Assembly: GCA_964504865.1 (NCBI GenBank)
Contig: CAZDFS010000008.1
Span: forward strand, 6,711-70,710
From: an uncultured Wenzhouxiangella sp.
Lineage (GTDB): Bacteria > Pseudomonadota > Gammaproteobacteria > Xanthomonadales > Wenzhouxiangellaceae
Reading direction: 5' to 3'
Length of the DNA stretch: 64,000 nt
Part shown: positions 4,876 to 64,000 of the stretch, one piece after another
How the letters are laid out: the number at the start of each line of letters is the position of its first letter
Numbering within the stretch: the first letter of the stretch is position 1
Program-made: the position numbers and the translations under genes
Notes under the pieces: model-generated
The model's input: the letters and a program-made list of their open reading frames with translations, nothing else
What the model was told of the DNA's origin: nothing
Database searches by the model: none

Positions 4876-4992
4876 GGAAAGACTTTTCAAAAAGAACGGC
4901 CTCCATGATAGCGAAACGCCATCCGATCAACGGCAAAGTCAGAGCACTCTGCTAGACTCAAGTTTCTTATCGGCTCAGGAGCGACGAACACG

Positions 4993-5370
4993 ATGATCAT
5001 TCAGCGTTTCACTTGGTATTTCAAGGGACTGGCATTGATTGGGCTGTTGGCACTGGCCGTTCCCGTCCTCGCCCAGCAGACCGACGAGGTGCCGCCCCCA
5101 CCGCCGATCCCAGATCCGGAGCCGCTTCCACCGAAGGTGATCGACCCCGACGAGCAGCTCGAGCCGCAGGTGGTCATTCGTCAGGAAGACGGCGAACAGA
5201 TCGAGGAGTATTCGCGCAACGGCGTCGTGTACATGATTCGAGTCGTCCCCGCGGCGGGGCCGGCCTACTACCTCATCGACACCACCGGCGACGGCAATTT
5301 CAACTCACGCTTTCAGCACGACCAGATCAATCCGGTCTATCCGGCTCACTGGAAGCTGATCGAGTGGTAG
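4993..5370 (+). CDS. Secreted DUF2782-family protein
   Basis: 125 aa with a signal peptide, a Pro-rich linker and a ...GVVYMIRVVPAAGPAYYLIDTTGDGNF core. Divergent from polA, as DUF2782 genes are in pseudomonads (recollection). Confidence 0.65.
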   Translation: MIIQRFTWYFKGLALIGLLALAVPVLAQQTDEVPPPPPIPDPEPLPPKVIDPDEQLEPQVVIRQEDGEQIEEYSRNGVVYMIRVVPAAGPAYYLIDTTGDGNFNSRFQHDQINPVYPAHWKLIEW

Positions 5371-6140
5371 GCCTCGGCCAGGGCCAGGAACTCCTCGAGC
5401 GAGAGGGTTTCGGGCCGCGCTGACGGAGCGATGCCGGCAGCCTCGATAGCGGCCTCGTCGAGATGTTTCTTCAGGCTGTTCCGCAGGGTCTTGCGCTTCT
5501 GATTGAAGGCCGCCTGTACCACGGCGGCCAGGGCCGGCCGAATCGCGCGCTCGGCCGCACCGAGGCTCACGGGAGTCATCAGGATGATCGATGAATCGAC
5601 CCGAGGCGGGGGCTCGAAGGCCTCCGGCGGGACGTCGAAGAGCCCCTCCATGTCGCAGTGAAAGCGAGCCATGACCGACAGGCGCCCGTACTGGCGCGAG
5701 CCCGGTTCGGCCACCAGACGCGTCACGACCTCCTTCTGCAGCATGAAGACCATATCGGCGATCCAGGCAGCCTGGTCGAAGAGGTGAAACAGCAGCGGCG
5801 TCGAAATGTTGTAGGGCAGATTGCCGACCACGCGCAGGGAGGACGGCCCGGTCGCCAGACGCGAGAAGTCGAATCGCAGGGCGTCGGCCTGGTGGATGAC
5901 GAGCTCCGCCGGCTCGCCCAGGCGGCGCGGCAGGTCGAGCGCCAGGTCACGATCGAGCTCGACGACGTGCAGGCGGCCGACAGCCTGGAGCAGCGGGCGG
6001 CTGAGCACCCCCTCCCCCGGTCCGATTTCGACCAGGGCATCACCCGGGCGCGGATCGATGGCCGACACGATGCGGTCGATGACCGCCGAGTCGCGCAGGA
6101 AGTGCTGACCGAAGCGCTTGCGCGGACGATGAGCGCTCAC
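5346..6140 (-). CDS. rsmA: 16S rRNA (adenine1518/1519-N6) dimethyltransferase
   Basis: 264 aa. KRFGQHFL N-terminus, VEIGPGxG SAM motif, NLPYNIS motif. Last gene of the lptD-surA-pdxA-rsmA synteny. Confidence 0.93.
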   Translation of the reverse strand: MSAHRPRKRFGQHFLRDSAVIDRIVSAIDPRPGDALVEIGPGEGVLSRPLLQAVGRLHVVELDRDLALDLPRRLGEPAELVIHQADALRFDFSRLATGPSSLRVVGNLPYNISTPLLFHLFDQAAWIADMVFMLQKEVVTRLVAEPGSRQYGRLSVMARFHCDMEGLFDVPPEAFEPPPRVDSSIILMTPVSLGAAERAIRPALAAVVQAAFNQKRKTLRNSLKKHLDEAAIEAAGIAPSARPETLSLEEFLALAEAYHSISFQ

Positions 6141-7117
6141 GAGGCGCGCTCGATGAGCTCCTGGGCGAGGTCCACGGCCGCGCGCAGGCTGCCCGGATCA
6201 GCCTTTCCCTGCCCGGCCAGATCGAGGGCGGTGCCGTGGTCGACGGACGTGCGGATGAACGGCAGACCCAGGGTGACGTTGACCGCCTGGCCAAAGCCGG
6301 CGTGCTTGAGCACGGGCAGGCCCTGGTCGTGATACATGGCCAGCACGGCATCGAAGCCCTCGAGCTGGCTCGGCAGAAAGGCCGTGTCTGCCGGCAGCGG
6401 CCCGCTCAGCGACATCCCATCGGCGCGAGCCTGCTCGAGCACCGGCTCGATGACGTCGATTTCCTCGCGCCCCAGATGCCCGGCCTCTCCGGCGTGGGGA
6501 TTGAGGCCTAGCACGGCGATATGGGGCCGTTCGAGGCCGAAGCGATCGATGAGGTCCCGGTTCAGGATCTCGAGGACCGCGCGCACGCGCTCGGTAGTGA
6601 CGGCCTCGGCGACGTCGCGCAGGGGCAGGTGGGTCGTGACCAGGGCCACGCGTAGCGACCCGGCGGTCAGGAGCATGACCACCCGCGCCACGCCGGCCCG
6701 CTCGGCGAGGAACTCCGTGTGGCCGCTGAAGGGCACGCCCGCATCGTTGATCACTCCCTTGTGGATCGGCCCCGTGACCAGGCCGGCAGCGCGACCGCTG
6801 AGGCAGGCCTCGGCGGCGCGCTCGAGGCATTCGAGCACGTAGGGCGCGTTGCCGGGATCGAGGCGACCCGGCGTGGCCGGATAGCGCATGGCTACGGGCC
6901 AGCAGCGGAGCCGACCGACGACAGGCGGTCTCTCTCCGGCCTCCTCCGGATCCATGCGATCGATCTCGAGGGCCAGACCCAGCGCGTCGGCGCTTCGAGA
7001 CAGCAGCGTCGGGTCGGCCACCAGCAGCAGGCCAGGATCCTCCAGCGCCAGCCGGCAGGCGAGCTCCGGCCCGATGCCGGCCGGCTCGCCGGGCGTGAGA
7101 AGAAGCGGTCTGGCCAT
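6137..7117 (-). CDS. pdxA: 4-hydroxythreonine-4-phosphate dehydrogenase
   Basis: 326 aa. GEPAGIGPE N-terminus, GHTEFLA and DHGTA motifs. 4-nt overlap with rsmA. Confidence 0.93.
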   Translation of the reverse strand: MARPLLLTPGEPAGIGPELACRLALEDPGLLLVADPTLLSRSADALGLALEIDRMDPEEAGERPPVVGRLRCWPVAMRYPATPGRLDPGNAPYVLECLERAAEACLSGRAAGLVTGPIHKGVINDAGVPFSGHTEFLAERAGVARVVMLLTAGSLRVALVTTHLPLRDVAEAVTTERVRAVLEILNRDLIDRFGLERPHIAVLGLNPHAGEAGHLGREEIDVIEPVLEQARADGMSLSGPLPADTAFLPSQLEGFDAVLAMYHDQGLPVLKHAGFGQAVNVTLGLPFIRTSVDHGTALDLAGQGKADPGSLRAAVDLAQELIERAS

Positions 7118-7146
7118 GGGAAACTCGCTCGCCGCCGCGCGGCGAG

Positions 7147-8433
7147 TCAGAGTCGAATTTCGACGAAGGATTCGTCGCGCAGCTGACGCAGGAAGGAGTC
7201 GACTTCCTCCTCCGCCTTCTGATTGAACACGATTTCTCGCGCGCGAGCACGCAGCGTTTCCTCCGTACGGTCCGCGTCGCGCTCGCCCACGAGCTTGAGC
7301 AGGTGCCAGCCGTTGGGCGTCTGGAAGGGCTCGCTGAGCTCGTCGATCTCGAGCTGATCGACCACCGCCTGGATCTGATTGCCGAAAGCGCCTGCCTGGA
7401 ACCAGTCCAGCATGCCGCCGATATTGGCCGAGGACTCGTCCATCGAATGCTCACGCGCCAGCTCGGCGAAGTCGGCACCGTCCTCGAGCTGCGCATGCAG
7501 GTCACGGATCTGCGCCTCTGCTTCGGCAGGGGTAATCAATTCGTTCGGCCGGATCAGAAGGTGCCTGGCCTGGTATTCGCGAACGATGACTTCCTGCTGT
7601 TCGCGGCGGTCGCGGACCGCCAGAATCAGGAAGCCGACGGGTGAGCGCAGCGGCACGGTGACGCCGCCCACGCCGGCGCTCTGGATCGCTTCGGCCACTT
7701 CTGGTGACAGGGCGTTGATGCTGCGCCAGCCGACTTCGCCGCCCTCGAGGGCATTCGGGCTCTGGGAATAGGTCAGCGCCGCGGTCGCGAAGTCCAGATC
7801 CTGGTTGACGATCCGATCGCGGACCTCGACGGCCTGCTGCTGCGCTTCCTGGACCTGAGCCTGGCTCGGCGATTCCGGCACGGGGATGATGATCTGAGAG
7901 AGCAGATACTCATCGCCGCCGAGGCGCTCCGAGGCCAGGATGATGTCAATTTCCGTATCGCTGATCTCATCCATGGAATTGACGACCCGCTGGCGCAGGC
8001 GGCTGGACATGACTTCCTCGCGGATACTGCGTCGGAATTCGGCGAAGTCGACGCCCTCGGACTCCACCGCGCGGCGCAGCTGCGGGAGCTCCAGGCCGTT
8101 CTGCTGGGCGACCTGCTGCAGGGTCTGGTCCACATCCAGATCGGAGACTCGGATGCCCGTCGCTTCGGCGCGCAGCACTTCGAGTCGAGTCAGGATCAGG
8201 CGCTCGAGGACCTGCTCTTCGATCAGGCTGCGCGGCGGAACGCGCTCGCCGGCGGCCTGCGCCTGGCGCTCGATTCGTTCGATGGCATCATCGAGTTCTG
8301 ACCGCATGATCACATCGTCCTCGACCAGCGCCACGATCGAATCCACGGGCTGCAGGTCCTGGGCCTGAAGCAGCATCGGCAGTAGCAGCAGGCCCGCTGC
8401 GATTCCTCGCAAGATTGGCGTTCGGTAGTTCAT
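7147..8433 (-). CDS. surA: Periplasmic chaperone / peptidyl-prolyl isomerase SurA
   Basis: 428 aa. Signal peptide, SurA N-domain and two parvulin-like segments. Sits between lptD and pdxA. Confidence 0.9.
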   Translation of the reverse strand: MNYRTPILRGIAAGLLLLPMLLQAQDLQPVDSIVALVEDDVIMRSELDDAIERIERQAQAAGERVPPRSLIEEQVLERLILTRLEVLRAEATGIRVSDLDVDQTLQQVAQQNGLELPQLRRAVESEGVDFAEFRRSIREEVMSSRLRQRVVNSMDEISDTEIDIILASERLGGDEYLLSQIIIPVPESPSQAQVQEAQQQAVEVRDRIVNQDLDFATAALTYSQSPNALEGGEVGWRSINALSPEVAEAIQSAGVGGVTVPLRSPVGFLILAVRDRREQQEVIVREYQARHLLIRPNELITPAEAEAQIRDLHAQLEDGADFAELAREHSMDESSANIGGMLDWFQAGAFGNQIQAVVDQLEIDELSEPFQTPNGWHLLKLVGERDADRTEETLRARAREIVFNQKAEEEVDSFLRQLRDESFVEIRL

Positions 8434-25887: not shown

Positions 25888-27852
25888 CTACCGGCGACCA
25901 CGAGTCCGCAGCGCCTGCGGCGTGTAGCTGCTGATGCTCAGCGGAACGTTGAAGGTATTGACCGGATCCTGATTGTCCAGCCCCGTCGCTACGTAGCGAC
26001 CCGACTGCAGATCCATATGGCTCTCGATCGAAGACCAGTACGTCGGCACATCGTAGTACTGGATCGTATGCGCTTCCGAGGCACGCCACAGCTCACCACG
26101 CTGGTCGTAGTGGTCGATCAGTGCGATCTGGTAGGTGTCCTCGTCGAGGTAGAAGGTGCGACGAGAATTGATGTGGCGGGTGCCTTCGCGCAGACGCGCA
26201 TCGACGATCCAGACCCGGTGCAGCTCATAGCGAGTCAGGTCGGCATTGAGGTGCCCCGGCCGCACGATGTCATCGGGCGTCAGCTCGCCGCTGTGGATCT
26301 CGTAGGCGTTGTAGGGAATGTACATCTCCTTCTTGCCGACGATCTCCCAGGTGAAGCGATCCATGGCGCCATTGAACATGTCGGTCATGTCGTTCGTACG
26401 CAGGCCGTCGGAGGCGGTACCGGGGTTGTCGTAGGCGATGTTCGGCGCACGACGGACGCGGCGCTGACCCGGGTTGTAGATCCAGGCCTGGCGTGGCGTT
26501 TCGATCTGGTTCAGCGTCTCATGGACAAGAAGAATGTTCCCGGCCAGACGGGCCGGCGACTCGACTTCCTGGAAGAAGTAGAGAAGGATGTTGTTCGTGT
26601 CCTCGATCGAGGAACCCTCTGCGTAGTACAGGCCCAGCAATTCCTCGCGCAGGCGAACGAGCTGGTAGCTTCCCGTGGGTGTGGGCGCGACCTGGTTGTT
26701 GTAGCGAACGCCGCCCGTGCCCTTGTACTTGAGCTTGTGGTTCCACATCAGCTCATAGGAATTCTGCGGCAGCGGGAAGGGGAATCCCTCGGAGACGTCG
26801 GCCACGCCTTCGCCCTCGGAAATCAGGCGACCGGTCGCCGCATTCCGGATGGTCGCGTCGTAAATGAACTGCGGGAAGGCAGCGCTGCGACGGGTCGGGA
26901 AGACACGCATCTTGTAGGTGTCAGGGTAGCGTTCGAAGGTCGCCATCTGTCCCACCGAAAGACGGTCCGCGTAGTCCTGATAGTTGTCGCCGGTAATGAC
27001 GAACAGCGGCTCGTCGTCGGGGTAGGGATTCAGGTGACGATCGCCCGGCTGATAGCCGGCGGGCCAATCGTCGAGACCGATGCCTCCGGTCCAGGGCGGA
27101 ATCGTGCCATCGGCGTTGCCGGCCTGGATGGAACCCATGGGGGTCAGATCGTTACCAAGGCGGGCGATGTTTTCCGGCGTGCGCGGGATGATGAAATCCC
27201 CAGCGTCCGACGGTACGGCAGATGCGGCTGGCGGTGCCGCGGCAGCCACTGCCGCAGCGGCCTGTGCCGCTTCCTCGGCCGCCATGCGCTCGGCCTCAGC
27301 CGCTTGTTCTGCTGCCATGCGCTCAGCCTCAGCCTGCTCGACGGCAAGTCGCTCCGCTTCTGCCTCGGCCTCCGCCGCGACGCGAGCCGCTTCAGCTTCG
27401 GCCGCTTCGCGTTCGGCGGCCAGGCGGCCTGCTTCCTCTTCGGCGCGACGCTCGGCTTCGGCCGCCATGCGAGCAGCCTCGGCTTCCGCTTCGGCCGCCA
27501 TTCGCGCAGCCTCTTCTTCAGCAGCTATGCGGGCGGCTTCTGCCTGTGCCTCGGCTTCTGCAGCCTGGCGGGCGGCTTCGGCTTCGGCCTCGGCAGCCAT
27601 GCGCTCGGCTTCCGCGGCTGCCTCGGCGGCGGCTCGCTCGGCTTCCGCCTCGGCAGCCATCCGCTCGGCCTCGGCCCGCTCGGCAGCTTCGCGCTCTGCC
27701 TCTTGCGCTTCGAAGCGATCCGACATCTCCTCCTGCGTGGAGTCCATCGACTCGTCCTGAGTTTCAGGACCCGTCGAACAGGCGACCAGCGCCAGGCTGG
27801 AGAACAGCGCAAAGGCCAGAATCAATAGCGTTTTGGTTTGAATCGATTTCAT
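25888..27852 (-). CDS. DUF1329-family (LolA-like fold) lipoprotein with a long N-terminal Glu/Ala-rich spacer
   Basis: 654 aa. Lipobox LALVAC with Ser at +2. Residues ~47-200 are an AEAEAERMAAE-type repeat and the C-terminal ~430 aa resemble DUF1329 (…YDNPGTASDGLRTNDM…). Confidence 0.8.
   Translation of the reverse strand: MKSIQTKTLLILAFALFSSLALVACSTGPETQDESMDSTQEEMSDRFEAQEAEREAAERAEAERMAAEAEAERAAAEAAAEAERMAAEAEAEAARQAAEAEAQAEAARIAAEEEAARMAAEAEAEAARMAAEAERRAEEEAGRLAAEREAAEAEAARVAAEAEAEAERLAVEQAEAERMAAEQAAEAERMAAEEAAQAAAAVAAAAPPAASAVPSDAGDFIIPRTPENIARLGNDLTPMGSIQAGNADGTIPPWTGGIGLDDWPAGYQPGDRHLNPYPDDEPLFVITGDNYQDYADRLSVGQMATFERYPDTYKMRVFPTRRSAAFPQFIYDATIRNAATGRLISEGEGVADVSEGFPFPLPQNSYELMWNHKLKYKGTGGVRYNNQVAPTPTGSYQLVRLREELLGLYYAEGSSIEDTNNILLYFFQEVESPARLAGNILLVHETLNQIETPRQAWIYNPGQRRVRRAPNIAYDNPGTASDGLRTNDMTDMFNGAMDRFTWEIVGKKEMYIPYNAYEIHSGELTPDDIVRPGHLNADLTRYELHRVWIVDARLREGTRHINSRRTFYLDEDTYQIALIDHYDQRGELWRASEAHTIQYYDVPTYWSSIESHMDLQSGRYVATGLDNQDPVNTFNVPLSISSYTPQALRTRGRR
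27253..27714 (-). repeat. In-frame imperfect tandem repeat encoding the (A/E/R)-rich helical spacer
   Basis: Translated units EAERMAAEAEAE / EAARMAAEAEAE / EAERLAVEQAEAERMAAEQ recur. The antisense ORFs of this stretch are Ala/Ser/Arg-rich artefacts. Confidence 0.85.
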
Positions 27853-33593: not shown

Positions 33594-35375
<1,782 letters not shown>

Positions 35376-38551: not shown

Positions 38552-39061
38552 TCAGGGCAAGGTTCGCAGCGTCAGCTCGCCCTGGCGCTGCACCAGCTCG
38601 AGTTCGCGCAGAAAGCTCATGCCGAGGAGCACTGTGTCGTGGCGGCCGGGGTTGATGGCGGCGCGAACATCGCGCTTGACGATGTCACCGAGACGCACTT
38701 CATCGAGCCGGGTCAGGTAACCCTGCACCGGGCCCGCCGCGGTTTGCAGCCCGATCGGGGCTTCCCGCACCAGGCCCATGTCGTCGGCCAGGGCCTCGGG
38801 AATGGAAACCAGGGTGGCGCCCGTATCGACGAGGAAGGTCACGCCGCGCCCGTTGATGCCCCCGCTGGCGACGAAATGACCCTGCCGGTCGGAGCGCAGC
38901 GTGACCTGCACCCCGTTCGCGATCCGCTCGCTGTTGACCACCTGATTCGGGTTGGCGCGCTGATCGAGCTGGCCGGAAAAGAACCAGGTCAGAATGCCCA
39001 GCATGCCGAGGGCGGCAATGAGCATCATGCCGAAGCCGGTTTTTTGATCGGATTGACTCAC
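38552..39061 (-). CDS. Retropepsin-like (clan AA, TIGR02281-type) membrane-anchored aspartic protease
   Basis: 169 aa. N-terminal TM helix, FLVDTGAT active-site motif and LLGMSFL flap-like motif. GTG start overlaps the aceF TGA (GTGA). The exact start is uncertain. Confidence 0.75.
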   Translation of the reverse strand: MSQSDQKTGFGMMLIAALGMLGILTWFFSGQLDQRANPNQVVNSERIANGVQVTLRSDRQGHFVASGGINGRGVTFLVDTGATLVSIPEALADDMGLVREAPIGLQTAAGPVQGYLTRLDEVRLGDIVKRDVRAAINPGRHDTVLLGMSFLRELELVQRQGELTLRTLP

Positions 39062-40494
39062 AGGAGCTGGCGACGCAGGTCCTCGAGCTGGGATGCGAGA
39101 TAGCCCGTGAAGCGCGCCGCGTCGGCCCCGTCGATCACGCGGTGATCGTAGGACAGGGACAGGGGCAACATCAGGCGCGGCTGGAAGTCCGACCCATCCC
39201 AGACCGGTTTCATCTGCGCTCGCGAAACGCCGAGGATCGCCAGCTCCGGCGCGTTGATGATGGGGGTGAATGCCGTGCCGCCGATGCCGCCGAGGCTGGA
39301 GATGGAGAAACAGCCGCCCTTCATTTCATCGCCCTTGAGCTTGCCCTCGCGGGCGCGGCTCGACAGGTCGGTCAGCTCCTGGGACAGGGCAATCAGGCCC
39401 TTCTTGTCGCAGTCACGGAGCACCGGCACGACCAGGCCGTTGGGCGTATCGACGGCCACGCCGATGTGGAAGTAGTGCTTGCGGATCAGGGTCTGGCCAT
39501 CGCGCGACAGGGAGGCGTTGAAGTCGGGGAAGGCCTTCAGTGCCCCCACCACCGCCTTGATAAGGAACACCAGCGGGGTCATCTTGGTTCCCTCTGCCTC
39601 GGCCTTGTGCTGATTGGCCTTGCGGAAGGCCTCCATTTCAGTGATGTCGGCCTCGTCGAACTGGGTCACGTGCGGGATCGAGACCCAGTTCCGATGCAGA
39701 TTCGGCCCGGAAATTCGCTTGATGCGCGACAGGGCCTCCTCCTCGACGTCGCCGTACTTCGAGAAGTCGACGTCAGGTGCCTCGGCCACGCTCAGCCCGC
39801 CGGACCCTGCGCCCGCCTGCGCCGGGCCGTCCATGCGCTGCTTGACGAAGGCCTTCAGGTCATCCTCGGTGATTCGACCCCCTCGTCCGGAGCCCGACAC
39901 CTCGGCGGGGTCCACGCCCAGCTCTCGCGCCAGCTTGCGCACGGCCGGCGAGGCGTGCGGCAGGGTGGCCGGGTCCGCGTCCATCGAATCGAAGGGGACC
40001 GGCGGCGCCGGGACTTCCTCGGAACGCTTCGAACGCGAGGCCTGACGCGACCCCGTATCGATCGCTGGAAAACTCGACGGCGGCGCCGGCGTGTCCCGAT
40101 CCGAGGTCGAGCGTTCCTCGTCTTCTGTCCCGGAGGAGCCCTCGGCGACATCGCCTGCACCCTGCTTCTCGTCGGGGGAATCGGTCGCCGTCGATGCGTC
40201 GGCCTGCGACTCATTGTCCCGCGACCCTTCGTCCGGCGACCCGTCGTCGTCCGAGGCGATTTCCATCACGCCGATAACGTCGCCCTCACCGACCTCATCA
40301 CCCTCACTGACCGTCAGCTCGACGAGGGTCCCCGCTGCCGGCGAGGGCACCTCCATGGTGGCCTTGTCCGACTCAAGCGTCACCAGCGATTGCTCGGCTT
40401 CGATCTCATCACCGGCCGCGACCAGCAGCTCGATCACCGGCACCTTATCGAAATCACCGATATCGGGAACGCGAATTTCCTGTCGTTTACTCAT
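39058..40494 (-). CDS. aceF: Dihydrolipoyllysine-residue acetyltransferase (PDH E2), single lipoyl domain
   Basis: 478 aa. Lipoyl domain, E3-binding domain (ASPAVRKLARELGVD) and catalytic SLSYDHRVIDG. Confidence 0.93.
   Translation of the reverse strand: MSKRQEIRVPDIGDFDKVPVIELLVAAGDEIEAEQSLVTLESDKATMEVPSPAAGTLVELTVSEGDEVGEGDVIGVMEIASDDDGSPDEGSRDNESQADASTATDSPDEKQGAGDVAEGSSGTEDEERSTSDRDTPAPPSSFPAIDTGSRQASRSKRSEEVPAPPVPFDSMDADPATLPHASPAVRKLARELGVDPAEVSGSGRGGRITEDDLKAFVKQRMDGPAQAGAGSGGLSVAEAPDVDFSKYGDVEEEALSRIKRISGPNLHRNWVSIPHVTQFDEADITEMEAFRKANQHKAEAEGTKMTPLVFLIKAVVGALKAFPDFNASLSRDGQTLIRKHYFHIGVAVDTPNGLVVPVLRDCDKKGLIALSQELTDLSSRAREGKLKGDEMKGGCFSISSLGGIGGTAFTPIINAPELAILGVSRAQMKPVWDGSDFQPRLMLPLSLSYDHRVIDGADAARFTGYLASQLEDLRRQLL
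40264..40494 (-). repeat. Lipoyl-domain coding repeat, copy 2 (in aceF)
   Basis: Direct repeat of 35148-35375 on the same strand. Confidence 0.8.
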
Positions 40495-58001: not shown

Positions 58002-58874
58002 ATGAGCGAACATGACTACGCCCCGCCGACGATCTGGCAGTGGGAAAAGGACAACGGCGGCAAGTTCGCCAACATCAATCGTCCCACCGCCGGCGCGACC
58101 CACGACAAGACGCTACCGGTCGGCAAGCACCCGCATCAGCTCTATTCCCTGGCCACGCCGAACGGCGTCAAGGTCACCGTCCTGTTCGAGGAGCTTCTGG
58201 CCCTCGGCCTCGACGATGCGGAGTACGATGCCTGGCTCATCGATATCGGCGAGGGGGAACAGTTCAGCGCCGGATTCGTCGCCGCCAACCCGAACTCCAA
58301 GATTCCGGCGCTGGTGGATCACTCTGTCCAGCCCGCCCAGCGCGTGTTCGAGTCCGGCGCCATCCTGCTCTATCTGGCCGAGAAGTTCGACGCCTTTCTG
58401 CCGAAGGCGCCGCGGGCCAGGACCGAGTGCCTCAACTGGCTGTTCTGGCAGATGGGCTCGGCGCCTTACCTCGGCGGAGGCTTCGGCCACTTCTATGCCT
58501 ACGCGCCGATCAAGATCAAGTACGCCATCGACCGCTTCGCCATGGAAGCCAAGCGCCAGCTCGACGTCCTCGATCGCCATCTGGCGGAAAACGAATTCAT
58601 CGCCGGCGCCGACTACAGCATCGCCGACATGGCGATCTGGCCCTGGTACGGGCAGATGGCCCTGGGCCGGCTCTACGATGCCGCCGAGTTCCTCCAGGTC
58701 GAAGACTACGAGCACCTGCAGCGCTGGTCAAAGCAGCTCGACGACCGGCCCGCCGTCACCCGCGGCCGCATGGTGAACCGGCCCTTCGGCCGGCCGGAAA
58801 TGCAGCTGCACGAACGCCACGACGCCAGCGATTTCGAATCTAAAACCCAGGACAAGATCGAAGGCCACGAATAA
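58002..58874 (+). CDS. yghU: Nu-class glutathione S-transferase (YghU-like)
   Basis: 290 aa. ...YAPPTIWQWEKDNGGKFANINRPTAG...HPHQLYSLATPNGVKV... closely resembles YghU. Confidence 0.88.
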   Translation: MSEHDYAPPTIWQWEKDNGGKFANINRPTAGATHDKTLPVGKHPHQLYSLATPNGVKVTVLFEELLALGLDDAEYDAWLIDIGEGEQFSAGFVAANPNSKIPALVDHSVQPAQRVFESGAILLYLAEKFDAFLPKAPRARTECLNWLFWQMGSAPYLGGGFGHFYAYAPIKIKYAIDRFAMEAKRQLDVLDRHLAENEFIAGADYSIADMAIWPWYGQMALGRLYDAAEFLQVEDYEHLQRWSKQLDDRPAVTRGRMVNRPFGRPEMQLHERHDASDFESKTQDKIEGHE

Positions 58875-58889
58875 CACTGGCGCATCTCG

Positions 58890-58923
58890 GCGACGGATGG
58901 GTCGCCTGGCAGCTTTGTTTTCA
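58890..58923 (+). terminator. Possible intrinsic terminator of yghU
   Basis: ggcgac-ggatgg-gtcgcc followed by tggcagctttgttttc. Confidence 0.35.
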
Positions 58924-58959
58924 TGGCCGCTTGGCTTTTTCGAATCGTGAATCGCGGCT

Positions 58960-59740
58960 TGATTGTTTTCCGCTTTGCGGGATGAAGGTCAAAGGCGCTT
59001 GGTTAAATTCGCTTCGCGAATGAAAGGCGTTTCGCCCACGCTTCGCTTGCAGGGCGAGTTTCTTTTGCCAAACGATGCAAAAGAAACCAAAAGATCTGGT
59101 GCCCACGACCTCGCCGGCTGCGCCGGACACTGCGCGGCTCCGGCCAGAACGGCTGGCCATGCTTAAACTCGCTCCGCTAACGCTCCACTCAGACAGGCAT
59201 GTCCAGAAGGCTCCCGTTCTGGCCTGCGCTGCTCGACGAGTGTCCAGGGCACGAAAGGCCGGGAGACGGGCCTTTGCTTTGCTCGGCCCAGCGGTAGTCA
59301 TTTTCACTGCTACTGGTCACTTTCGCACCGGCGCGAGCGCAGCGATGCGCTGTCCTGTCCTTGCCCGTTCCTGCCCTTGACGCTCGCCGGGGGCGCGTAG
59401 GGTGGAACGGCGTTTTTGTGGGCATGCCTGTCTGACCGGAGCGCAGCGAAGGGAGTTTAAGCATGACCACCCGTTCCAACCGGAGCGACACCGGGCACCG
59501 GCCGCAGGCCGGCGAGGTCTCTGGGCAGGAGTCCTTTTGGTTTCTTTTGGGACGGCTGCCAAAAGAAACTCGCCCAGAAAGCGCGAAGCACAGGCGAGAA
59601 CGCAAGGGCGGTTTGCGCGCAGCGCATGAAGCCCTGGAGTGGAGGCGTCGTGCGTGCGTGGGCGAAACGCCTTTCATTCGCGAAGCGAATTTAACCAAGC
59701 GCCTTTGACTTTAAGCCCGCGCAGCGAAAAACAAACAAAC
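58960..59740. repeat. Giant imperfect palindromic non-coding element, copy A
   Basis: The left arm (from ~58965) and the reverse complement of the right arm (to ~59735) align over several hundred bp (gtcaaaggcgcttggttaaattcgcttcgcgaatgaaaggcgtttcgcccacgc...ggcgagtttcttttg...catgcttaaactc...cagacaggcatg). The right arm has an ~80-bp segment absent from the left. No credible ORF. Confidence 0.85.
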
Positions 59741-59772
59741 CCTTTTGACTCCCCTTGCGAAGCAATAAACCT

Positions 59773-61755
59773 TCATCCCTCCAACAGCGCTTTCAGCGCC
59801 GCAATATTCGCTTTGGCGTCTTCGCTGGAGGTTTCCCTGGTGCCGTGTCGCGCGGGCCAGTCGATGACTGATTCGGGGAGTTCATCGAGGAAGCGGCTGG
59901 GCTCTGCGCTGACCGACTCGCCGGCGCGGCGGCGGGCTCGGCAGTAGCTGATCGTCAGCTGCCGCTCGGCGCGGGTGATGCCGACGTACATCAGGCGCCG
60001 CTCTTCTTCGATCTGATCATCGTCGATCGAGCGCTGGTGCGGCAGCAGGCCTTCTTCGCAGCCGGCGAGCCAGACGTGCTTGAACTCCAGCCCCTTGGCG
60101 GCGTGCAGGGTCATGAGCCGGACCTGGTCGGCGCCCTCGCTGCGGTCGTCGTCCGGACCGGCGGCCAGCGAGACGCGGGCGATAAGTTCCTCGATCGAGT
60201 CCGTGTCGGCGGCCAGCCTTTCGACCCAGCCGCAGAGGTCGTCGAGGTTGCGCCGGCGGCGCTCGGCCTTTTTCGGATCGTCGTCCTGTTCGATCAGCCA
60301 GTCGACGTAGCCGATATGCTCGAGGAGCTCGCGGTAGGTTTCGCCGATGCCGTGGTCTTCGATCCGATGGTTGAAGTCGACCAGCAGATTCGTGAAGCCA
60401 CGCAGGGCGCGGGCGGCCGGTTGATTGAGCTCGTTCTGGAACAGCGGGTCGAGTCCGGCTTCGAACAGGCTTTTACCGACCGCATCGGCGTAGGTCGCCA
60501 GGCGCGCCATCGCCGTCGAGCCGAAGCCCCGGCGCGGGGTGTTGATCACCCGCATGAAGGCCGGGTTGTCGTCGGGATTGGCGAGAACGCGGAGGTAGGA
60601 CAGGCCGTCGCGGATTTCGCGCGCGTCGAACCAGCTCGGGCCGCCGGAGACGATGTAGGGCACGGCGTTCTCGCGCAGCTGTTGTTCGATGGCGCGGGCC
60701 TGGAAGTTCGAGCGATAGAGCACGGCCATTTCGCCCCAGCGCGCCCGGCCGCCGTGGTGCAGGGTGAGAATGTCGCGGGCGATGCCTTCGGACTCATCGC
60801 CGTCGTCGTCGAACTCGACCACGCGGATATCGTCGCCGGGCCCGTGCTGACTCCACAGGCGTTTCTCGAACTCGTGCGGGTTGCAGGCGATGACGGCGTT
60901 GGCCGCCTCCAGGATTTTACCGGCCGAACGGTAGTTCTGCTCGAGCTTGACCACGCGCAGGTCCGGGTAGTCGGTCTTCAGACCCGACAGGTTTTCCGGC
61001 CGCGCGCCGCGCCAGCCATAGATCGACTGATCGTCGTCGCCCACGGCCGTCATCGCGCCGACATCGCCAACGAGCTGGCGCAGCAGGCGGTACTGGGCCG
61101 CGCTCGTGTCCTGGTACTCATCGACAAGCAGGTATTTCAGGCGTCGGCGCCAGCGGGTGCGAATCACCGGATCTTCGAGGAGCTTCGCCGGCAGGGCGAT
61201 CAGATCATCGAAGTCGACGGCGTTGAGCGCGACCAGCCGCGATTGGTAGTCGCGATAGATTTCGGCCGCGCGCGCCGCGTTATCGTCGCCCGCCCGGGCC
61301 ATCGCGTCGCCCGGGTCCAGCCCGGCGTCTTTGGCCTGGCTGATGCCGTTCATCACCGCATAGACCAGGTCGTTCTTGGCGCCGGCGGGCAGCAGCTCAC
61401 GCAGGAGATCGCCGGCGGCGTGCTGATCCAGGATGCTCAGGCCGCTACGACGCTCGCAGGATTCCGGCGATTCGCGCAGGATCCGCCAGCCCAGCGAATG
61501 GAAGGTGCAGATCGTCAGCCCCTCGGTGCGCTTGCGCTTGATCCGCTGGCCAACGCGCTGGCGCATTTCCTTCGCCGCCTTGTTGGTAAAGGTGATGGCC
61601 GCGATCTCCGGCGCGCCGAAATGGTCGCGGTCGATCATCCAGGCGATCTTCTCGGTAATCACCCGCGTCTTCCCCGATCCGGCGCCGGCCAGCACCAGGA
61701 GCGGTGAATCGATGTGGGTGACAGCAGCGCGCTGTTGATCATTGAGCGACGACAT
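59773..61755 (-). CDS. rep: ATP-dependent DNA helicase Rep (UvrD/Rep superfamily 1)
   Basis: 660 aa. Motif I AGAGSGKT, VDEYQDT and Rep-like length. Confidence 0.88.
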   Translation of the reverse strand: MSSLNDQQRAAVTHIDSPLLVLAGAGSGKTRVITEKIAWMIDRDHFGAPEIAAITFTNKAAKEMRQRVGQRIKRKRTEGLTICTFHSLGWRILRESPESCERRSGLSILDQHAAGDLLRELLPAGAKNDLVYAVMNGISQAKDAGLDPGDAMARAGDDNAARAAEIYRDYQSRLVALNAVDFDDLIALPAKLLEDPVIRTRWRRRLKYLLVDEYQDTSAAQYRLLRQLVGDVGAMTAVGDDDQSIYGWRGARPENLSGLKTDYPDLRVVKLEQNYRSAGKILEAANAVIACNPHEFEKRLWSQHGPGDDIRVVEFDDDGDESEGIARDILTLHHGGRARWGEMAVLYRSNFQARAIEQQLRENAVPYIVSGGPSWFDAREIRDGLSYLRVLANPDDNPAFMRVINTPRRGFGSTAMARLATYADAVGKSLFEAGLDPLFQNELNQPAARALRGFTNLLVDFNHRIEDHGIGETYRELLEHIGYVDWLIEQDDDPKKAERRRRNLDDLCGWVERLAADTDSIEELIARVSLAAGPDDDRSEGADQVRLMTLHAAKGLEFKHVWLAGCEEGLLPHQRSIDDDQIEEERRLMYVGITRAERQLTISYCRARRRAGESVSAEPSRFLDELPESVIDWPARHGTRETSSEDAKANIAALKALLEG

Positions 61756-61925
61756 GGGCCGGCAATTCTAGCGCGGTCGACGCCTCAGAAGTGCCCGAAG
61801 CCCTTGAGAATCTGCTCAGTGAACGCAGCGATTCGGCGCGAGCACGGCGCATCCTTTACAATCGCGGGCTTCGACGAACCCAGGGCCCGAACATCATCGG
61901 ACCCGACGACTCAACAGGACGACTC

Positions 61926-62105
61926 GTGAGCGACAAGGAATACAAGAGCTGGATGTGCGTGGTCTGCGGCTGGATCTACCACGAAGAGGAAGGATCACCC
62001 GATGACGGGATCCCGCCGGGCACGAAGTGGGAAGACGTCCCCGAAGGCTGGCTCTGCCCCGACTGCGGGGCGGGCAAGGAAGACTTCGAGATGGTCGAGC
62101 TCTGA
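61926..62105 (+). CDS. Rubredoxin
   Basis: CVVCGW and CPDCGA metal-binding pairs with ...WEDVPEGWLCP... Start is probably GTG 61926 (59 aa). The longer track ORF is an unlikely extension. Confidence 0.85.
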   Translation: MSDKEYKSWMCVVCGWIYHEEEGSPDDGIPPGTKWEDVPEGWLCPDCGAGKEDFEMVEL

Positions 62106-62161
62106 GCTCGATCCCTGGCCTCCCGAACTCTCGAAACCCCGGGCCTCGAACAACGCGCCGC

Positions 62162-62905
62162 TCAATTCATCCCGGCGCTGATCAGCCCGGTCTGCCAGCG
62201 ACCATTCTCATGCAGGCGATACCAGCGCGCCTTCGGCCCCGTCGGATCGGGGGTGAAAACCTCGGTTTCGGCCTGCGAATTGGCCACCGTTGACGGCGCC
62301 GACAGGCAGACGATACCGTCGCGCTCACCCATGAAGGCCTGATGCACGTGGCCGAAGCCGACAGCTCGTACCTGCGTATCGGCGAGGTGCTGCCACAGCA
62401 GCTCGGACTGGCCCAGGCCGTACTTGTCGATCCAGGGTGCGTTGATCGGCAGCGGCTGGTGATGGATGAAGGCCAGGGCGGGCCGGTCGCAGCTACTCGT
62501 TCCCACTGATTTCAGCGGCGCCAGCCGCGCTTCATCGACAATCCCGTCGCCGCGGTCGCCGAAGGCCGAATCCAGCAGCACGATCCGCCAGCCGCCCCAG
62601 TCAAGGACCGGGCCTGCATCGAAATCAGGGGCGGAGAGCACATCGGCCATGGCGGCCTTGTTGTCGTGATTGCCGGGCAGCCAGGCCCGACGCGGGGCCC
62701 AGTCGCGGATCAGATCAGCGACGCGCTGATACGAGTCGGTCGAGCCGTCTTCGGAAATATCGCCCGACAGCACCAGGCCGTCGGGCGCCATCGCGTCGAT
62801 GCCCACCTGAAGGCGCGCCAGATTGCGGTCGGCATTCTCGCCGCGGTAGAGCGCCGCCGGGTCGCTGGAAAAGTGACAGTCAGAGATCTGGATCAGCGTG
62901 AACAT
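62162..62905 (-). CDS. cpdA: Metallophosphoesterase, 3',5'-cyclic-nucleotide phosphodiesterase CpdA-like
   Basis: 247 aa. ISDCHF, LSGDIS, LPGNHD and GHVH motifs. Confidence 0.72.
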   Translation of the reverse strand: MFTLIQISDCHFSSDPAALYRGENADRNLARLQVGIDAMAPDGLVLSGDISEDGSTDSYQRVADLIRDWAPRRAWLPGNHDNKAAMADVLSAPDFDAGPVLDWGGWRIVLLDSAFGDRGDGIVDEARLAPLKSVGTSSCDRPALAFIHHQPLPINAPWIDKYGLGQSELLWQHLADTQVRAVGFGHVHQAFMGERDGIVCLSAPSTVANSQAETEVFTPDPTGPKARWYRLHENGRWQTGLISAGMN

Positions 62906-62932
62906 GACGTTCGTCTCAGGCGTTGCGCTGGC

Positions 62933-63388
62933 TCAGCGGGCGGTGAGCTCGATATTTTCGATCTGGATCTGTTCACCCGGATCGAGCCCGATGGCCGCGG
63001 CCTGACCGGCGTTGAGCTCGAGCACGAACTGTGCGGGGCCCTCGCTGGGGTAGCTCGGGCACTGGCGCGTGCGGCACGGCGGTGTGTCGGCGGCGATGCT
63101 GACCACGCGCAGATCGCGGTCGAGGTAGATGATATCCAGCGGAATCCGCGTATTGCGCATCCAGAAACTGCGCGGCGCCTCGCGGCGAAAGATGAAGAAC
63201 ATGCCGCGGTTGTCGGCCATCTCGTCAACAAACATCAGGCCCCGCGCGCGCGACTGATCGTCATCGGCGATATCGACGAAATACCGGTGCCCCTCGAATT
63301 CCACGAAGGAGCGGCCCGTGTTGCCGCTGGCCTGGCAGCCGGCGAGCAGGGCGGTCAGAAGCAGAATGAAGGGCGTCAGTTTTCGCAT
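62933..63388 (-). CDS. DUF192-family lipoprotein
   Basis: 151 aa from ATG 63388. Lipobox LLAGC and ...RGLMFVDEMADNRGMFFIF...FWMRNTRIPLDIIYLD..., typical of DUF192. The track ORF is over-extended into repeat copy B. Confidence 0.75.
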   Translation of the reverse strand: MRKLTPFILLLTALLAGCQASGNTGRSFVEFEGHRYFVDIADDDQSRARGLMFVDEMADNRGMFFIFRREAPRSFWMRNTRIPLDIIYLDRDLRVVSIAADTPPCRTRQCPSYPSEGPAQFVLELNAGQAAAIGLDPGEQIQIENIELTAR

Positions 63389-63409
63389 GGGGGAATGGTA
63401 CCGCATTGG

Positions 63410-64000
63410 GGTTGGATTGATCCGCTGCGCGGATTTAACGCCAGAGGCGCATTGCCATCTGTCGCTGCGCGACAGAAGAGTCAAAAGCGTTTCGCCGTCG
63501 CTTCGCTTGCACGGCGAGTTTCTTTTGGCAGACGATCCAAAAGAAACCAAAAGATCTGGTGCCCACGAAATCGCCGGGCTTTGCCCGGACACTGCGCGGC
63601 TCCGGCCAGAACGGCTGGCCATGCTTAAACTCGCTTCGCTGCGCTCCACTCGAACAGGCATGTCCAGAAAGCCCCGTTCTGGACTACGCTGCTCGACGAC
63701 TTTCGAGGGCAGGGGGTAGACCTTTACGGGCCATCGCTTCGCTCGGCCCATGGAAAACGGTGGAGTGGTTTGCCTGCGACTCGATACGGTCATTTCGGCG
63801 CGAACGCCGTGATGCGCCGTCAGTGGTTTTTGCCCTTGACGCTCGTCGGGGGCGCGCAGGGCGTCAGATCTTTTTTTTCTTTTGCATCGTCTGGCAAAAG
63901 AAACTCGTCCAGAAAGCGCGGAGCACAGGTGGGAACGTAAGGGCGTTTTGCGCGCAGCGCATGAAGCCCTGGAGTGGAACCGTGGTGCATGCGTGGGCGA
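63410..64000. repeat. Giant palindromic non-coding element, copy B (truncated by the window end)
   Basis: Collinear with copy A in the same orientation (…ggcgagtttcttttggcagacgatccaaaagaaaccaaaagatctggtgcccacga…ccggccagaacggctggccatgcttaaactcgct…). The right arm carries an internal deletion relative to A and runs off the window. Confidence 0.85.

Follow-up and report, generated by a model that had tools for sequence, protein, structure and literature searches.

In this study, we describe a non-coding, hairpin-rich repeat element that occurs in two copies, A and B, in a 64,000-nt stretch (the window, meaning the whole DNA analysed) of contig CAZDFS010000008.1 from an uncultured Wenzhouxiangella sp. 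The two copies stand in the same orientation and bracket four genes, as follows.

58956..59741, no strand assigned: copy A, a complete doublet element (outer hairpins resembling repetitive extragenic palindromes (REPs), alpha arm, centre, beta arm, outer REP-like hairpins)
59773..63388: enclosed block, 3.67 kb between A and B
59773-61755, minus: rep/UvrD helicase gene
about 61791-62105, plus: rubredoxin gene
62162-62905, minus: metallophosphoesterase (Metallophos) gene
62933-63388, minus: DUF192 gene
63410..64000 within the window, end at about 64072: copy B, with hairpin P2 of the alpha arm at 63518-63547 and of the beta arm at 63875-63904

Two collinear palindromic copies around a four-gene block

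The first-pass annotation of this stretch described copy A as one long imperfect palindrome, and this was borne out: the termini (58956-59041 and 59656-59741, 86 nt) show 91% complementarity, an alignment of the interior (59027-59603) with its reverse complement runs over 595 nt at 71% (E 1.7e-58), and its 786 nt folded as single-stranded DNA reach -298 kcal/mol, against -166 +/- 5 for shuffled sequences (z = -24.7). Copy B had been called collinear with A in the same orientation and differently deleted. Both statements hold, with 80% identity between 59023-59402 and 63483-63861 and 88% between 59541-59665 and 63876-64000, and with about 125 nt missing from the beta (right) arm of B relative to A. 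The true end of B, read off sister contig L001, lies about 72 nt past the end of the window. The indel of about 80 bp noticed earlier between the arms of A corresponds to an extra block of about 70 nt in its right arm, and the local hairpins picked out at the time (attcgc-ttc-gcgaat, a tttcttttgN stem, ccggctgcgccgg and ggccagaacggctggcc) are all present.

The open reading frames (ORFs) inside the elements mirror each other across strands (the VKFASRMKGVSPT frames that had already been judged implausible as genes), their reading frames shift between A and B, and Pfam gave no match for them; a coding role for the element was rejected on these grounds. The enclosed genes are those expected, UvrD/Rep, rubredoxin, a metallophosphoesterase (earlier called cpdA-like) and DUF192. 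Copy B occupies the intergenic region between the divergent DUF192 and hemL genes, 22 nt from the DUF192 start codon, and its arms are oriented like leaders toward these two genes. No further copies were found within the 64-kb window, which thus holds two copies (four core modules) in all. The elements are confirmed as real, ORF-less, strongly self-complementary and collinear copies bracketing four genes.

Each copy is a doublet of two arm types

The layout was derived from an alignment of A, B and the L001 variant of A, and then of ten full elements of related organisms. From outside to inside, each half consists of REP-like hairpins with GTCAAAGGCG motifs, the terminal AAAGGCGTTTCGCC, the GC hairpin P1 (TCGCNN...NNGCGA), one G, the AU-rich 11-bp hairpin P2 (TTTCTTTTGN, an 8-nt loop and N'CAAAAGAAA) and CCAAAAG; further inward, a stem closes around the short hairpin P3 and a long compound hairpin, and the centre of about 120 nt follows, beyond which the other half mirrors the first. 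In copy A these parts lie as follows.

58969..59021: left outer region, with REP-like hairpins CCGC-TTT-GCGG (58970-58980) and ATTCGC-TTC-GCGAAT (59007-59021) and GTCAAAGGCG motifs between them
59023..59252, minus (the favoured, outward-reading strand): alpha arm
59234-59252 paired with 59098-59117, minus: basal stem of the alpha arm
59224-59142, minus: long hairpin of the alpha arm
59126-59114, minus: short GC hairpin P3 of the alpha arm
59087-59058, minus: AU-rich hairpin P2 of the alpha arm
59057-59032, minus: GC hairpin P1 of the alpha arm
59036-59023, minus: terminal AAAGGCGTTTCGCC of the alpha arm
59253..59371: centre between the arms, about 120 nt, with a GGGCC...GGCCC hairpin; it holds the recombination switch and is little conserved across species
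59372..59674, plus (outward): beta arm, with basal stem, long hairpin, P3, P2 (59540-59569), P1 (about 59569-59670) and terminal GGCGAAACGCCTTT (59661-59674)
59590..59660: extra module of about 70 nt in the P1 loop of the beta arm, lacking in parental copy G (see below) and present in B, L032, L056 and L061
59675-59727: right outer region, mirror of the left one

Each full element joins one alpha arm (…AAAGATCTGGTGCCCAC…) to one beta arm (…AAAGGACTCCTGCCCAG…). Across loci and species, alpha arms share 0.89-0.99 identity with each other and beta arms 0.86-0.99, whereas alpha and beta arms share 0.69-0.84, and the two arms within an element are only about 71-76% complementary. Because the halves differ in type, the element has polarity. 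Each copy is a divergent, back-to-back doublet of hairpin-rich units of about 250-300 nt and not a single long hairpin, and the 0.8-kb palindrome arises secondarily because two old paralogous arms, alpha and beta, sit on opposite strands. The giant arm-to-arm palindrome is therefore given up as the unit of selection, since the conserved parts are local stems inside each arm.

In L060 (5609-5839), the extra module, of about 65-70 nt (GAACGCAAGGGCGGTTTGCGCGCAGCGCATGAAGCCCTGGAGTGGAGG), sits at the apex of the long hairpin in reversed orientation, with a direct GCGCTACG repeat on both sides, and this module may be a smaller, nested insertion element. Minimal palindromic forms with P1-P2-P1' only were found in L024 (6148-6267) and L032 (5850-6001), and fit an origin by deletion from one self-complementary P2 hairpin of a doublet to the other.

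Compensatory change and strand preference of the arms

Read from the centre outward, each arm is a fold in its own right that comprises the basal stem around the long hairpin and P3, then P2, P1 and the REP-like hairpins. The structure alignment covered 27 arms in the outward sense, and its consensus structure has the basal stem, the long hairpin, P3 and P2. In it 96.8% of the cells were paired, against 86.8% after shuffling (0 of 500 shuffles), 13 of the 34 pairs had changed on both sides, and the covariation score was 0.295 versus 0.118, with slid-partner controls at 0.123 or below. Compensatory changes fall in the basal stem (columns 51-64 with 199-213), the long hairpin and P3, and since such substitutions occur, the local stems of the arms are supported. 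The closing pair of P2 was GC in 43, UA in 10 and CG in 6 of the 59 modules. Covariation in P1 was tabulated directly, because MAFFT misaligned the 5' strand of P1 between clades; the tabulation itself mis-picked that strand in some rows.

The two strands are not equivalent. Outside P2, the outward sense holds 41 G-U wobbles against 12 A-C mismatches, the alifold energy is -37.4 kcal/mol outward versus -27.3, and in 49 of 62 cases the 120-nt module folds more stably on the outward strand. Wobble and stability thus suggest, from sequence comparison, that the outward strand is the one that would act as RNA. A pseudoknot between the P2 loop and the sequence before P2 (GATC/GATC in alpha, GGAC/GUCC in beta) fits 24 of the 27 arms, but amounts to one alpha/beta difference and was not counted as evidence.

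Copy A is a chimera of two loci

Sister contigs of the same population are 99.2-100% identical. On them, a parental copy G lies between a GST gene and a penicillin-amidase (acylase) gene (L053, L051, L054), and a parental copy R between a 181-aa gene/TK and rep (L001, L002, L003). Both flank pairs are backed by synteny in other species, as GST and the acylase gene share a contig in L014 and the order rep-orf181-TK is found in L013. Copy A carries G alleles at all diagnostic sites through 59306, bar one single-nucleotide polymorphism private to L053 at 59117, and R alleles from 59317.

59307..59316: crossover interval, G (GST-side) to the left and R (rep-side) to the right

The hybrid-junction string CACTGCTACTGGTCAC (59305-59320) unites a G-type A at 59306 with R-type TC at 59317-59318. 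Copy A is a clean chimera of G and R with a single switch within 10 nt. This switch goes back either to a true crossover, which would mean an inversion if the chromosome carries G and R in inverted orientation, or to a chimeric join. It had been suggested that the repeats could mediate rearrangement; this stands in so far as copy A joins two loci, but copy A as an intact element of a single locus does not, being itself a hybrid.

A chimeric join leads to the broader question, raised from the outset, of whether the palindromes, or both copies, come from collapsed or chimeric reads. The hybrid nature of A gives this idea some ground, and no independent contig with a hybrid copy A was on record when such contigs were sought via junction-spanning ORFs and the rep protein, so that none of those fetched spans the junction. 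On the other hand, at least six JGI samples and one SRA run of the same population yielded this architecture in separate assemblies, as did many unrelated genomes and metagenomes; at least two contigs back each of G, R and B; and the switch falls within 10 nt between diagnostic sites, where a k-mer assembler needs reads with both markers. We regard an assembly artefact as very improbable, and the elements, having been assembled independently many times, are not artefacts.

Beyond copy B, about 1.85 kb past the window end and downstream of hemL, contig L001 (1-201) holds part of a tyrosine recombinase gene, encoding a C-terminal fragment (Pfam Phage_integrase, E 2e-17) whose tail resembles that of integron integrases. 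Contigs L001-L004, from four samples, all break in this gene, and L001-L003 retain the same fragment, which suggests a repeated or strain-variable island beside copy B.

The repeat family and its hosts

An exact P2-hairpin scan of genome contigs gave 45 loci, and a narrower scan of metagenomes 12. In 42 of the 45 genomic loci, GTTTCGC, a covarying P1 and CCAAAAG, or the mirrored equivalent, accompany P2, none of them being part of the search pattern, while the remaining 3 are chance matches in AT-rich genomes. Because these flanks lay outside the pattern, the 42 loci represent homology and not ascertainment. The arms thus recur elsewhere, as anticipated, and the family spans three gammaproteobacterial orders, with hosts among Wenzhouxiangella-like metagenome-assembled genomes (MAGs; Chromatiales), Aliikangiella (Oceanospirillales) and many Pseudomonas/Stutzerimonas/Metapseudomonas. 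The rep and hemL proteins of the organism, a Wenzhouxiangella relative, are 86% identical to those of a Wenzhouxiangella MAG. Self-complementary spans of 520-740 nt at 66-76% occur in all GC-rich clades (Pseudomonas, the MAG JBJHCC01 and the Wenzhouxiangella-like clade), and single arms are also found among the related loci.

No recurrent neighbouring gene (transposase, integrase or reverse transcriptase) was found in the 45 loci; only spurious ORFs inside the repeats cluster, and the true neighbours, such as alcohol dehydrogenase and GGDEF proteins, are unrelated. A BLAST of copy A against plasmid and phage collections gave no match, and a literature search with sequence strings returned only chance primer matches. 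These results agree with the initial view of a non-coding, multi-copy repeat family of nested palindromes without a transposase. Integron attC sites, IS200/IS605 ends or omega RNA, bridge RNA, type I toxin-antitoxin repeats and retron RNA were considered and dropped for want of an associated protein, an Rfam match and a conserved small ORF.

Several loci have features of their own. In the unclassified gammaproteobacterial MAG JBJHCC01, tandem direct units about 320 nt apart are mixed with inverted ones (L038:3700-4620, L046:1-920, L050:1500-3360). Pseudomonas contigs L007, L019, L040, L041 and L044 end within 150 nt of a P1-P2 module, and in Pseudomonas sp. BN417 at least 90 nt upstream of the module are also repeated, the repeat unit being longer there. 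One Pseudomonas doublet (2035-2717) has a Guanidine-I riboswitch about 280 nt away (L027:1655-1757), and another is adjoined by a C4 antisense RNA of the P1/P7 prophage-immunity type together with its a1/b1 targets (L010:5552-5741).

Relationship to TwoAYGGAY RNA

The element had earlier been left without a match to any named family. The Rfam search proposed then was run and returned nothing relevant in the window itself, but the Pseudomonas relatives match TwoAYGGAY (RF01731), so that a named relative is now at hand: the 3' module is common to these loci, although the window clade fails the model. At the Pseudomonas loci, RF01731 matches of 33-48 bits (the gathering threshold being 43 bits) lie 50-170 nt from the P1-P2 module. 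The match is on the strand opposite to the P1->P2 direction in 10 of the 11 scanned Pseudomonas loci with the core, with some divergent pairs, and the P1-P2-CCAAAAG module lies 3' of it on the same strand in 10 of 11; this module is also in both arms of A and B. The RF01731 layout of two hairpins on a basal stem is present as well, with the basal stem enclosing the long hairpin and P3. Neither loop holds AYGGAY: that of P3 reads GCA or resembles CUGC, the long hairpin has GAGCG repeats at its apex, and GGA is unconserved between copies.

A recent preprint describes an extended TwoAYGGAY structure in Pseudomonadota with a median of 11-23 copies per genome (Li et al., bioRxiv 10.64898/2026.09.22.753630, 24 September 2026), with 'three additional hairpins' at the 3' side, arrays of GMTBT(T) pentamers at the 5' side and REP arrays at a fixed 3' position, and with doublets that are 68.4% divergent at a median gap of 249 bp (10.64898/2026.09.22.753630). 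Its authors do not settle on a function and suggest a Csr/Rsm sponge and/or mobile-element-like spread (10.64898/2026.09.22.753630).

The window elements resemble these RNAs in being multi-copy and intergenic, in having two sequential hairpins on a common basal stem and extra 3' hairpins, in forming mostly divergent doublets that read as palindromes of 0.5-0.75 kb, and in their REP-like hairpins past the 3' end. GTTTCGC-P1-P2-CCAAAAG is common to the window arms and to the RF01731-bearing Pseudomonas loci. In the window population at least three loci (G, R and B) are known, all of them doublets with outward arms. There are also differences. The window elements are without an RF01731 match, AYGGAY loops or pentamer enrichment: the centre of A (161 nt) has GMTBT(T) twice on the plus and once on the minus strand, where the background of the window is 1.4 per 200 nt, and no enrichment of 5' pentamer arrays was found in that centre. 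At the apex they have a single long compound hairpin in which GAGCG is repeated, the inner ends of the arms of A are about 120 nt apart where the median gap is 249, each doublet has two fixed arm types, and the host is a Wenzhouxiangella-like member of Chromatiales and not a Pseudomonas.

Copy B is inherited and conserved

In another species (L056 and L058; hemL 91.5% and DUF192 87% protein identity), a full element occupies the same site between DUF192 and hemL. Compared with L056, copy B and its surroundings show the following identities.

Alpha arm: 189/198 = 95.5%
Beta arm: 79%
Centre: 58%
Adjacent spacer to hemL: 49%
Four-fold sites of hemL: 0.61
Four-fold sites of DUF192: 0.52

Copy B is closer to this ortholog (0.95) than to its paralog A (0.89), and B and the ortholog have common derived characters, which indicates descent plus purifying selection on a resident copy. 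Judged from these alignments, at least one vertically inherited copy, B, points to purifying selection. Furthermore, each of the three copies (G, R and B) has beside it one or more genes that adjoin an element in another species too, with both flanks conserved for B: the acylase gene follows an element in L014, and the 3' end of rep abuts one in L013. In L013, a Wenzhouxiangella MAG, these genes are reordered at 3184-7610 into hemL, Metallophos, DUF192, one element, rep, orf181 and TK. This one element is flanked on its left as copy B is and on its right as copy A/R is; such mixed flanks imply that the elements sit at rearrangement breakpoints.

These data bear on a selfish DNA-hairpin element, the main rival to an RNA reading. 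On this view, the copies are non-autonomous mobile DNA (REPIN- or MITE-like, that is, akin to miniature inverted-repeat transposable elements), the doublet is the replicating unit, its single-stranded hairpins are recognised by a transposase encoded elsewhere (e.g. RAYT/HUH), and conservation reflects what mobilisation needs. Much of the distribution would fit: multiple copies scattered at unrelated loci in three orders, contigs that often break at the element, deletion derivatives including the minimal P1-P2-P1' forms (L024, L032), REP-like hairpins at the ends, and the module of about 65 nt nested at varying positions. Compensatory change suits DNA hairpins as well as RNA. For Pseudomonas, the preprint reports extreme copy-number variation and mobile-element-like expansion (10.64898/2026.09.22.753630). 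Against this, the ends of A, B, G and R show no target-site duplication, neither a transposase nor a recurrent neighbour protein appeared in the 45 loci, the plasmid and phage collections held no match, and for each of G, R and B at least one flanking gene is retained in other species. A resident copy whose alpha arm is 95.5% identical, with common derived characters, where four-fold sites are at 52-61%, cannot be kept so by selection for mobility, and the bias of wobble pairs to one strand also speaks against this view. We therefore consider selfish DNA unlikely, although a serious contender, and the MITE-like mobility once proposed is set aside for the copies here, which show no sign of recent movement: there is no target-site duplication and no parent insertion sequence (IS), and the flanks are syntenic.

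Transcriptional context

Read inward, P1 followed by TTTCTTTTG was flagged by a terminator scan as intrinsic-terminator-like at both ends of the element, and GST (plus) and rep (minus) both read into copy A. Here P1 with TTTCTTTTG would serve as an intrinsic terminator for transcription entering from flanking genes.

This raises the possibility of a cis element at the level of DNA or transcription without an RNA of its own, namely a two-sided inward terminator or insulator and/or an array bound by nucleoid proteins or gyrase. Some REP/BIME and Correia elements have been shown to be nucleoid-protein or gyrase binding arrays or terminators. The inward terminators at both ends have a textbook shape and the two genes reading into A provide a use for them; in addition, the outer end of the arm faces a gene 3' end, in matching orientation and 100-250 nt after the stop codon, in 25 of 37 arms, a 25:12 bias that rests on heuristic gene calls with some redundant loci, is borderline (p about 0.05) and concerns the inward, not the outward, strand. 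Yet about 40 nt suffices for a terminator, which leaves the conserved, covarying basal stem, long hairpin and P3, and the 95.5% identity over about 200 nt, unaccounted for; copy B lies between divergent genes, where nothing reads in; and the wobble bias favours the outward strand. A cis element of this kind alone is thus rather improbable in our view.

Structured RNA doublets as the preferred reading

Taken together, it seems to us somewhat probable that the copies are an AYGGAY-less variant of the extended-TwoAYGGAY repeat family, that is, putative structured RNA doublets with terminator-like ends, kept by selection and recombining. The units would act as folded RNAs transcribed from the outward-reading strand; the family may once have spread like a mobile element, the copies here being old residents. 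Large structured RNAs had been among the options offered at the outset, and this option is the best backed, by covariation, strand bias and purifying selection. For the Pseudomonas relatives, binding of Csr/Rsm by the apical AYGGAY loops has been proposed, but such loops are absent here.

A number of observations weigh against this structured-RNA reading. As to the fold, P2 apart from its closing pair is invariant because of the search pattern and carries no evidence, single arms exceed shuffled sequences only modestly (z -3.3 and -1.8), the sequences behind the covariation and wobble counts are related and partly redundant, and compensatory change in hairpins fits a single-stranded DNA intermediate equally well. 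As to transcription, a scan of the elements and their vicinity found no sigma-70-like promoter, and outward promoters would be expected in the centre, which in copy B is only 58% conserved. As to selection, the L014 arm beside the acylase gene differs in subtype from that of the window population, so syntenic arms are not all conserved. As to the family, RF01731 gave nothing in the window at gathering and nothing at E <= 10 in 58800-64000, nor was there any match at E <= 1 in 15 further loci (12 of the window clade and the JBJHCC01 MAG, 3 of Aliikangiella); with loops that lack AYGGAY, the tie to TwoAYGGAY rests on the common 3' module and the topology.

A wider proposal can be made only tentatively, and we judge it possible though rather doubtful: GTTTCGC-P1-P2 with the basal-stem fold might define a superfamily of host-retained structured RNAs, about 250-300 nt long and encoded in divergent pairs, in at least three gammaproteobacterial orders, in which the AYGGAY hairpins of Pseudomonas are one exchangeable apical 'cargo' and copies such as that between DUF192 and hemL are kept by host-level purifying selection. 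If so, the conserved job of the superfamily would lie in the common scaffold and not in Csr/Rsm sponging. TwoAYGGAY has been an orphan RNA motif since 2010, and the description of its extended form in Pseudomonas, in many copies and as doublets, dates only from September 2026. A clade outside Pseudomonas that keeps scaffold and doublet without AYGGAY loops argues for a conserved function in the scaffold, and a syntenic, inherited copy that equals first and second codon positions in conservation speaks for a function at the level of the host over pure selfishness. Copy A adds a concrete instance of two copies exchanging sequence, by which chromosomal flanks near replication-origin side genes (trmE, yidC) are joined anew.

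Comparison with other extragenic repeats

REPs and REPINs are built on palindromes of about 20-40 nt with a conserved 5' tetranucleotide, arranged in doublets of about 100 nt, and the REPINs of P. fluorescens are mobilised by RAYT transposases. Like REP sequences, the BIMEs of E. coli and REPINs, the window elements are extragenic, hairpin-forming, mosaic, inverted doublets, often after gene 3' ends, and recombination substrates, and their outer hairpins resemble REPs. Unlike a 20-40-nt REP palindrome, the unit here is about 250-300 nt long with at least five distinct conserved stems, only the outermost hairpins being REP-sized; the window elements have no conserved 5' tetranucleotide of the GTAG type, no RAYT was seen among the neighbours of the 45 loci, and the core is conserved across orders whereas REP families are species-specific.

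Terminal inverted repeats as in MITEs are present (the 86-nt, 91% complementary termini), but no direct repeat was found beside A, G, R or B that could be a target-site duplication, and no parent IS was found, with neither a plasmid or phage match nor a transposase nearby. The Correia elements of Neisseria and the enterobacterial ERIC/IRU sequences are MITEs that bear terminators or promoters. They share with the window element a non-coding, palindromic nature, long inverted ends and the ability to terminate or modify neighbouring transcripts, but they are 100-170 bp long, with target-site duplications and clear insertion polymorphism, while the window element is 0.7-0.8 kb long, without a duplication, syntenic across species and equipped with covarying internal stems.

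Other repeats in the window

Two further repeats of the window lie within genes. A GC-rich direct repeat with a period of 33 nt (27224-27650) falls in the N-terminal coding part of a 654-aa DUF1329 protein (25888-27852, minus). A 236-nt direct repeat of 78% identity (35131-35366 and 40247-40482) corresponds to lipoyl domains, at the N-terminus of dihydrolipoamide dehydrogenase (33594-35375) and in the E2 acyltransferase (39058-40494).

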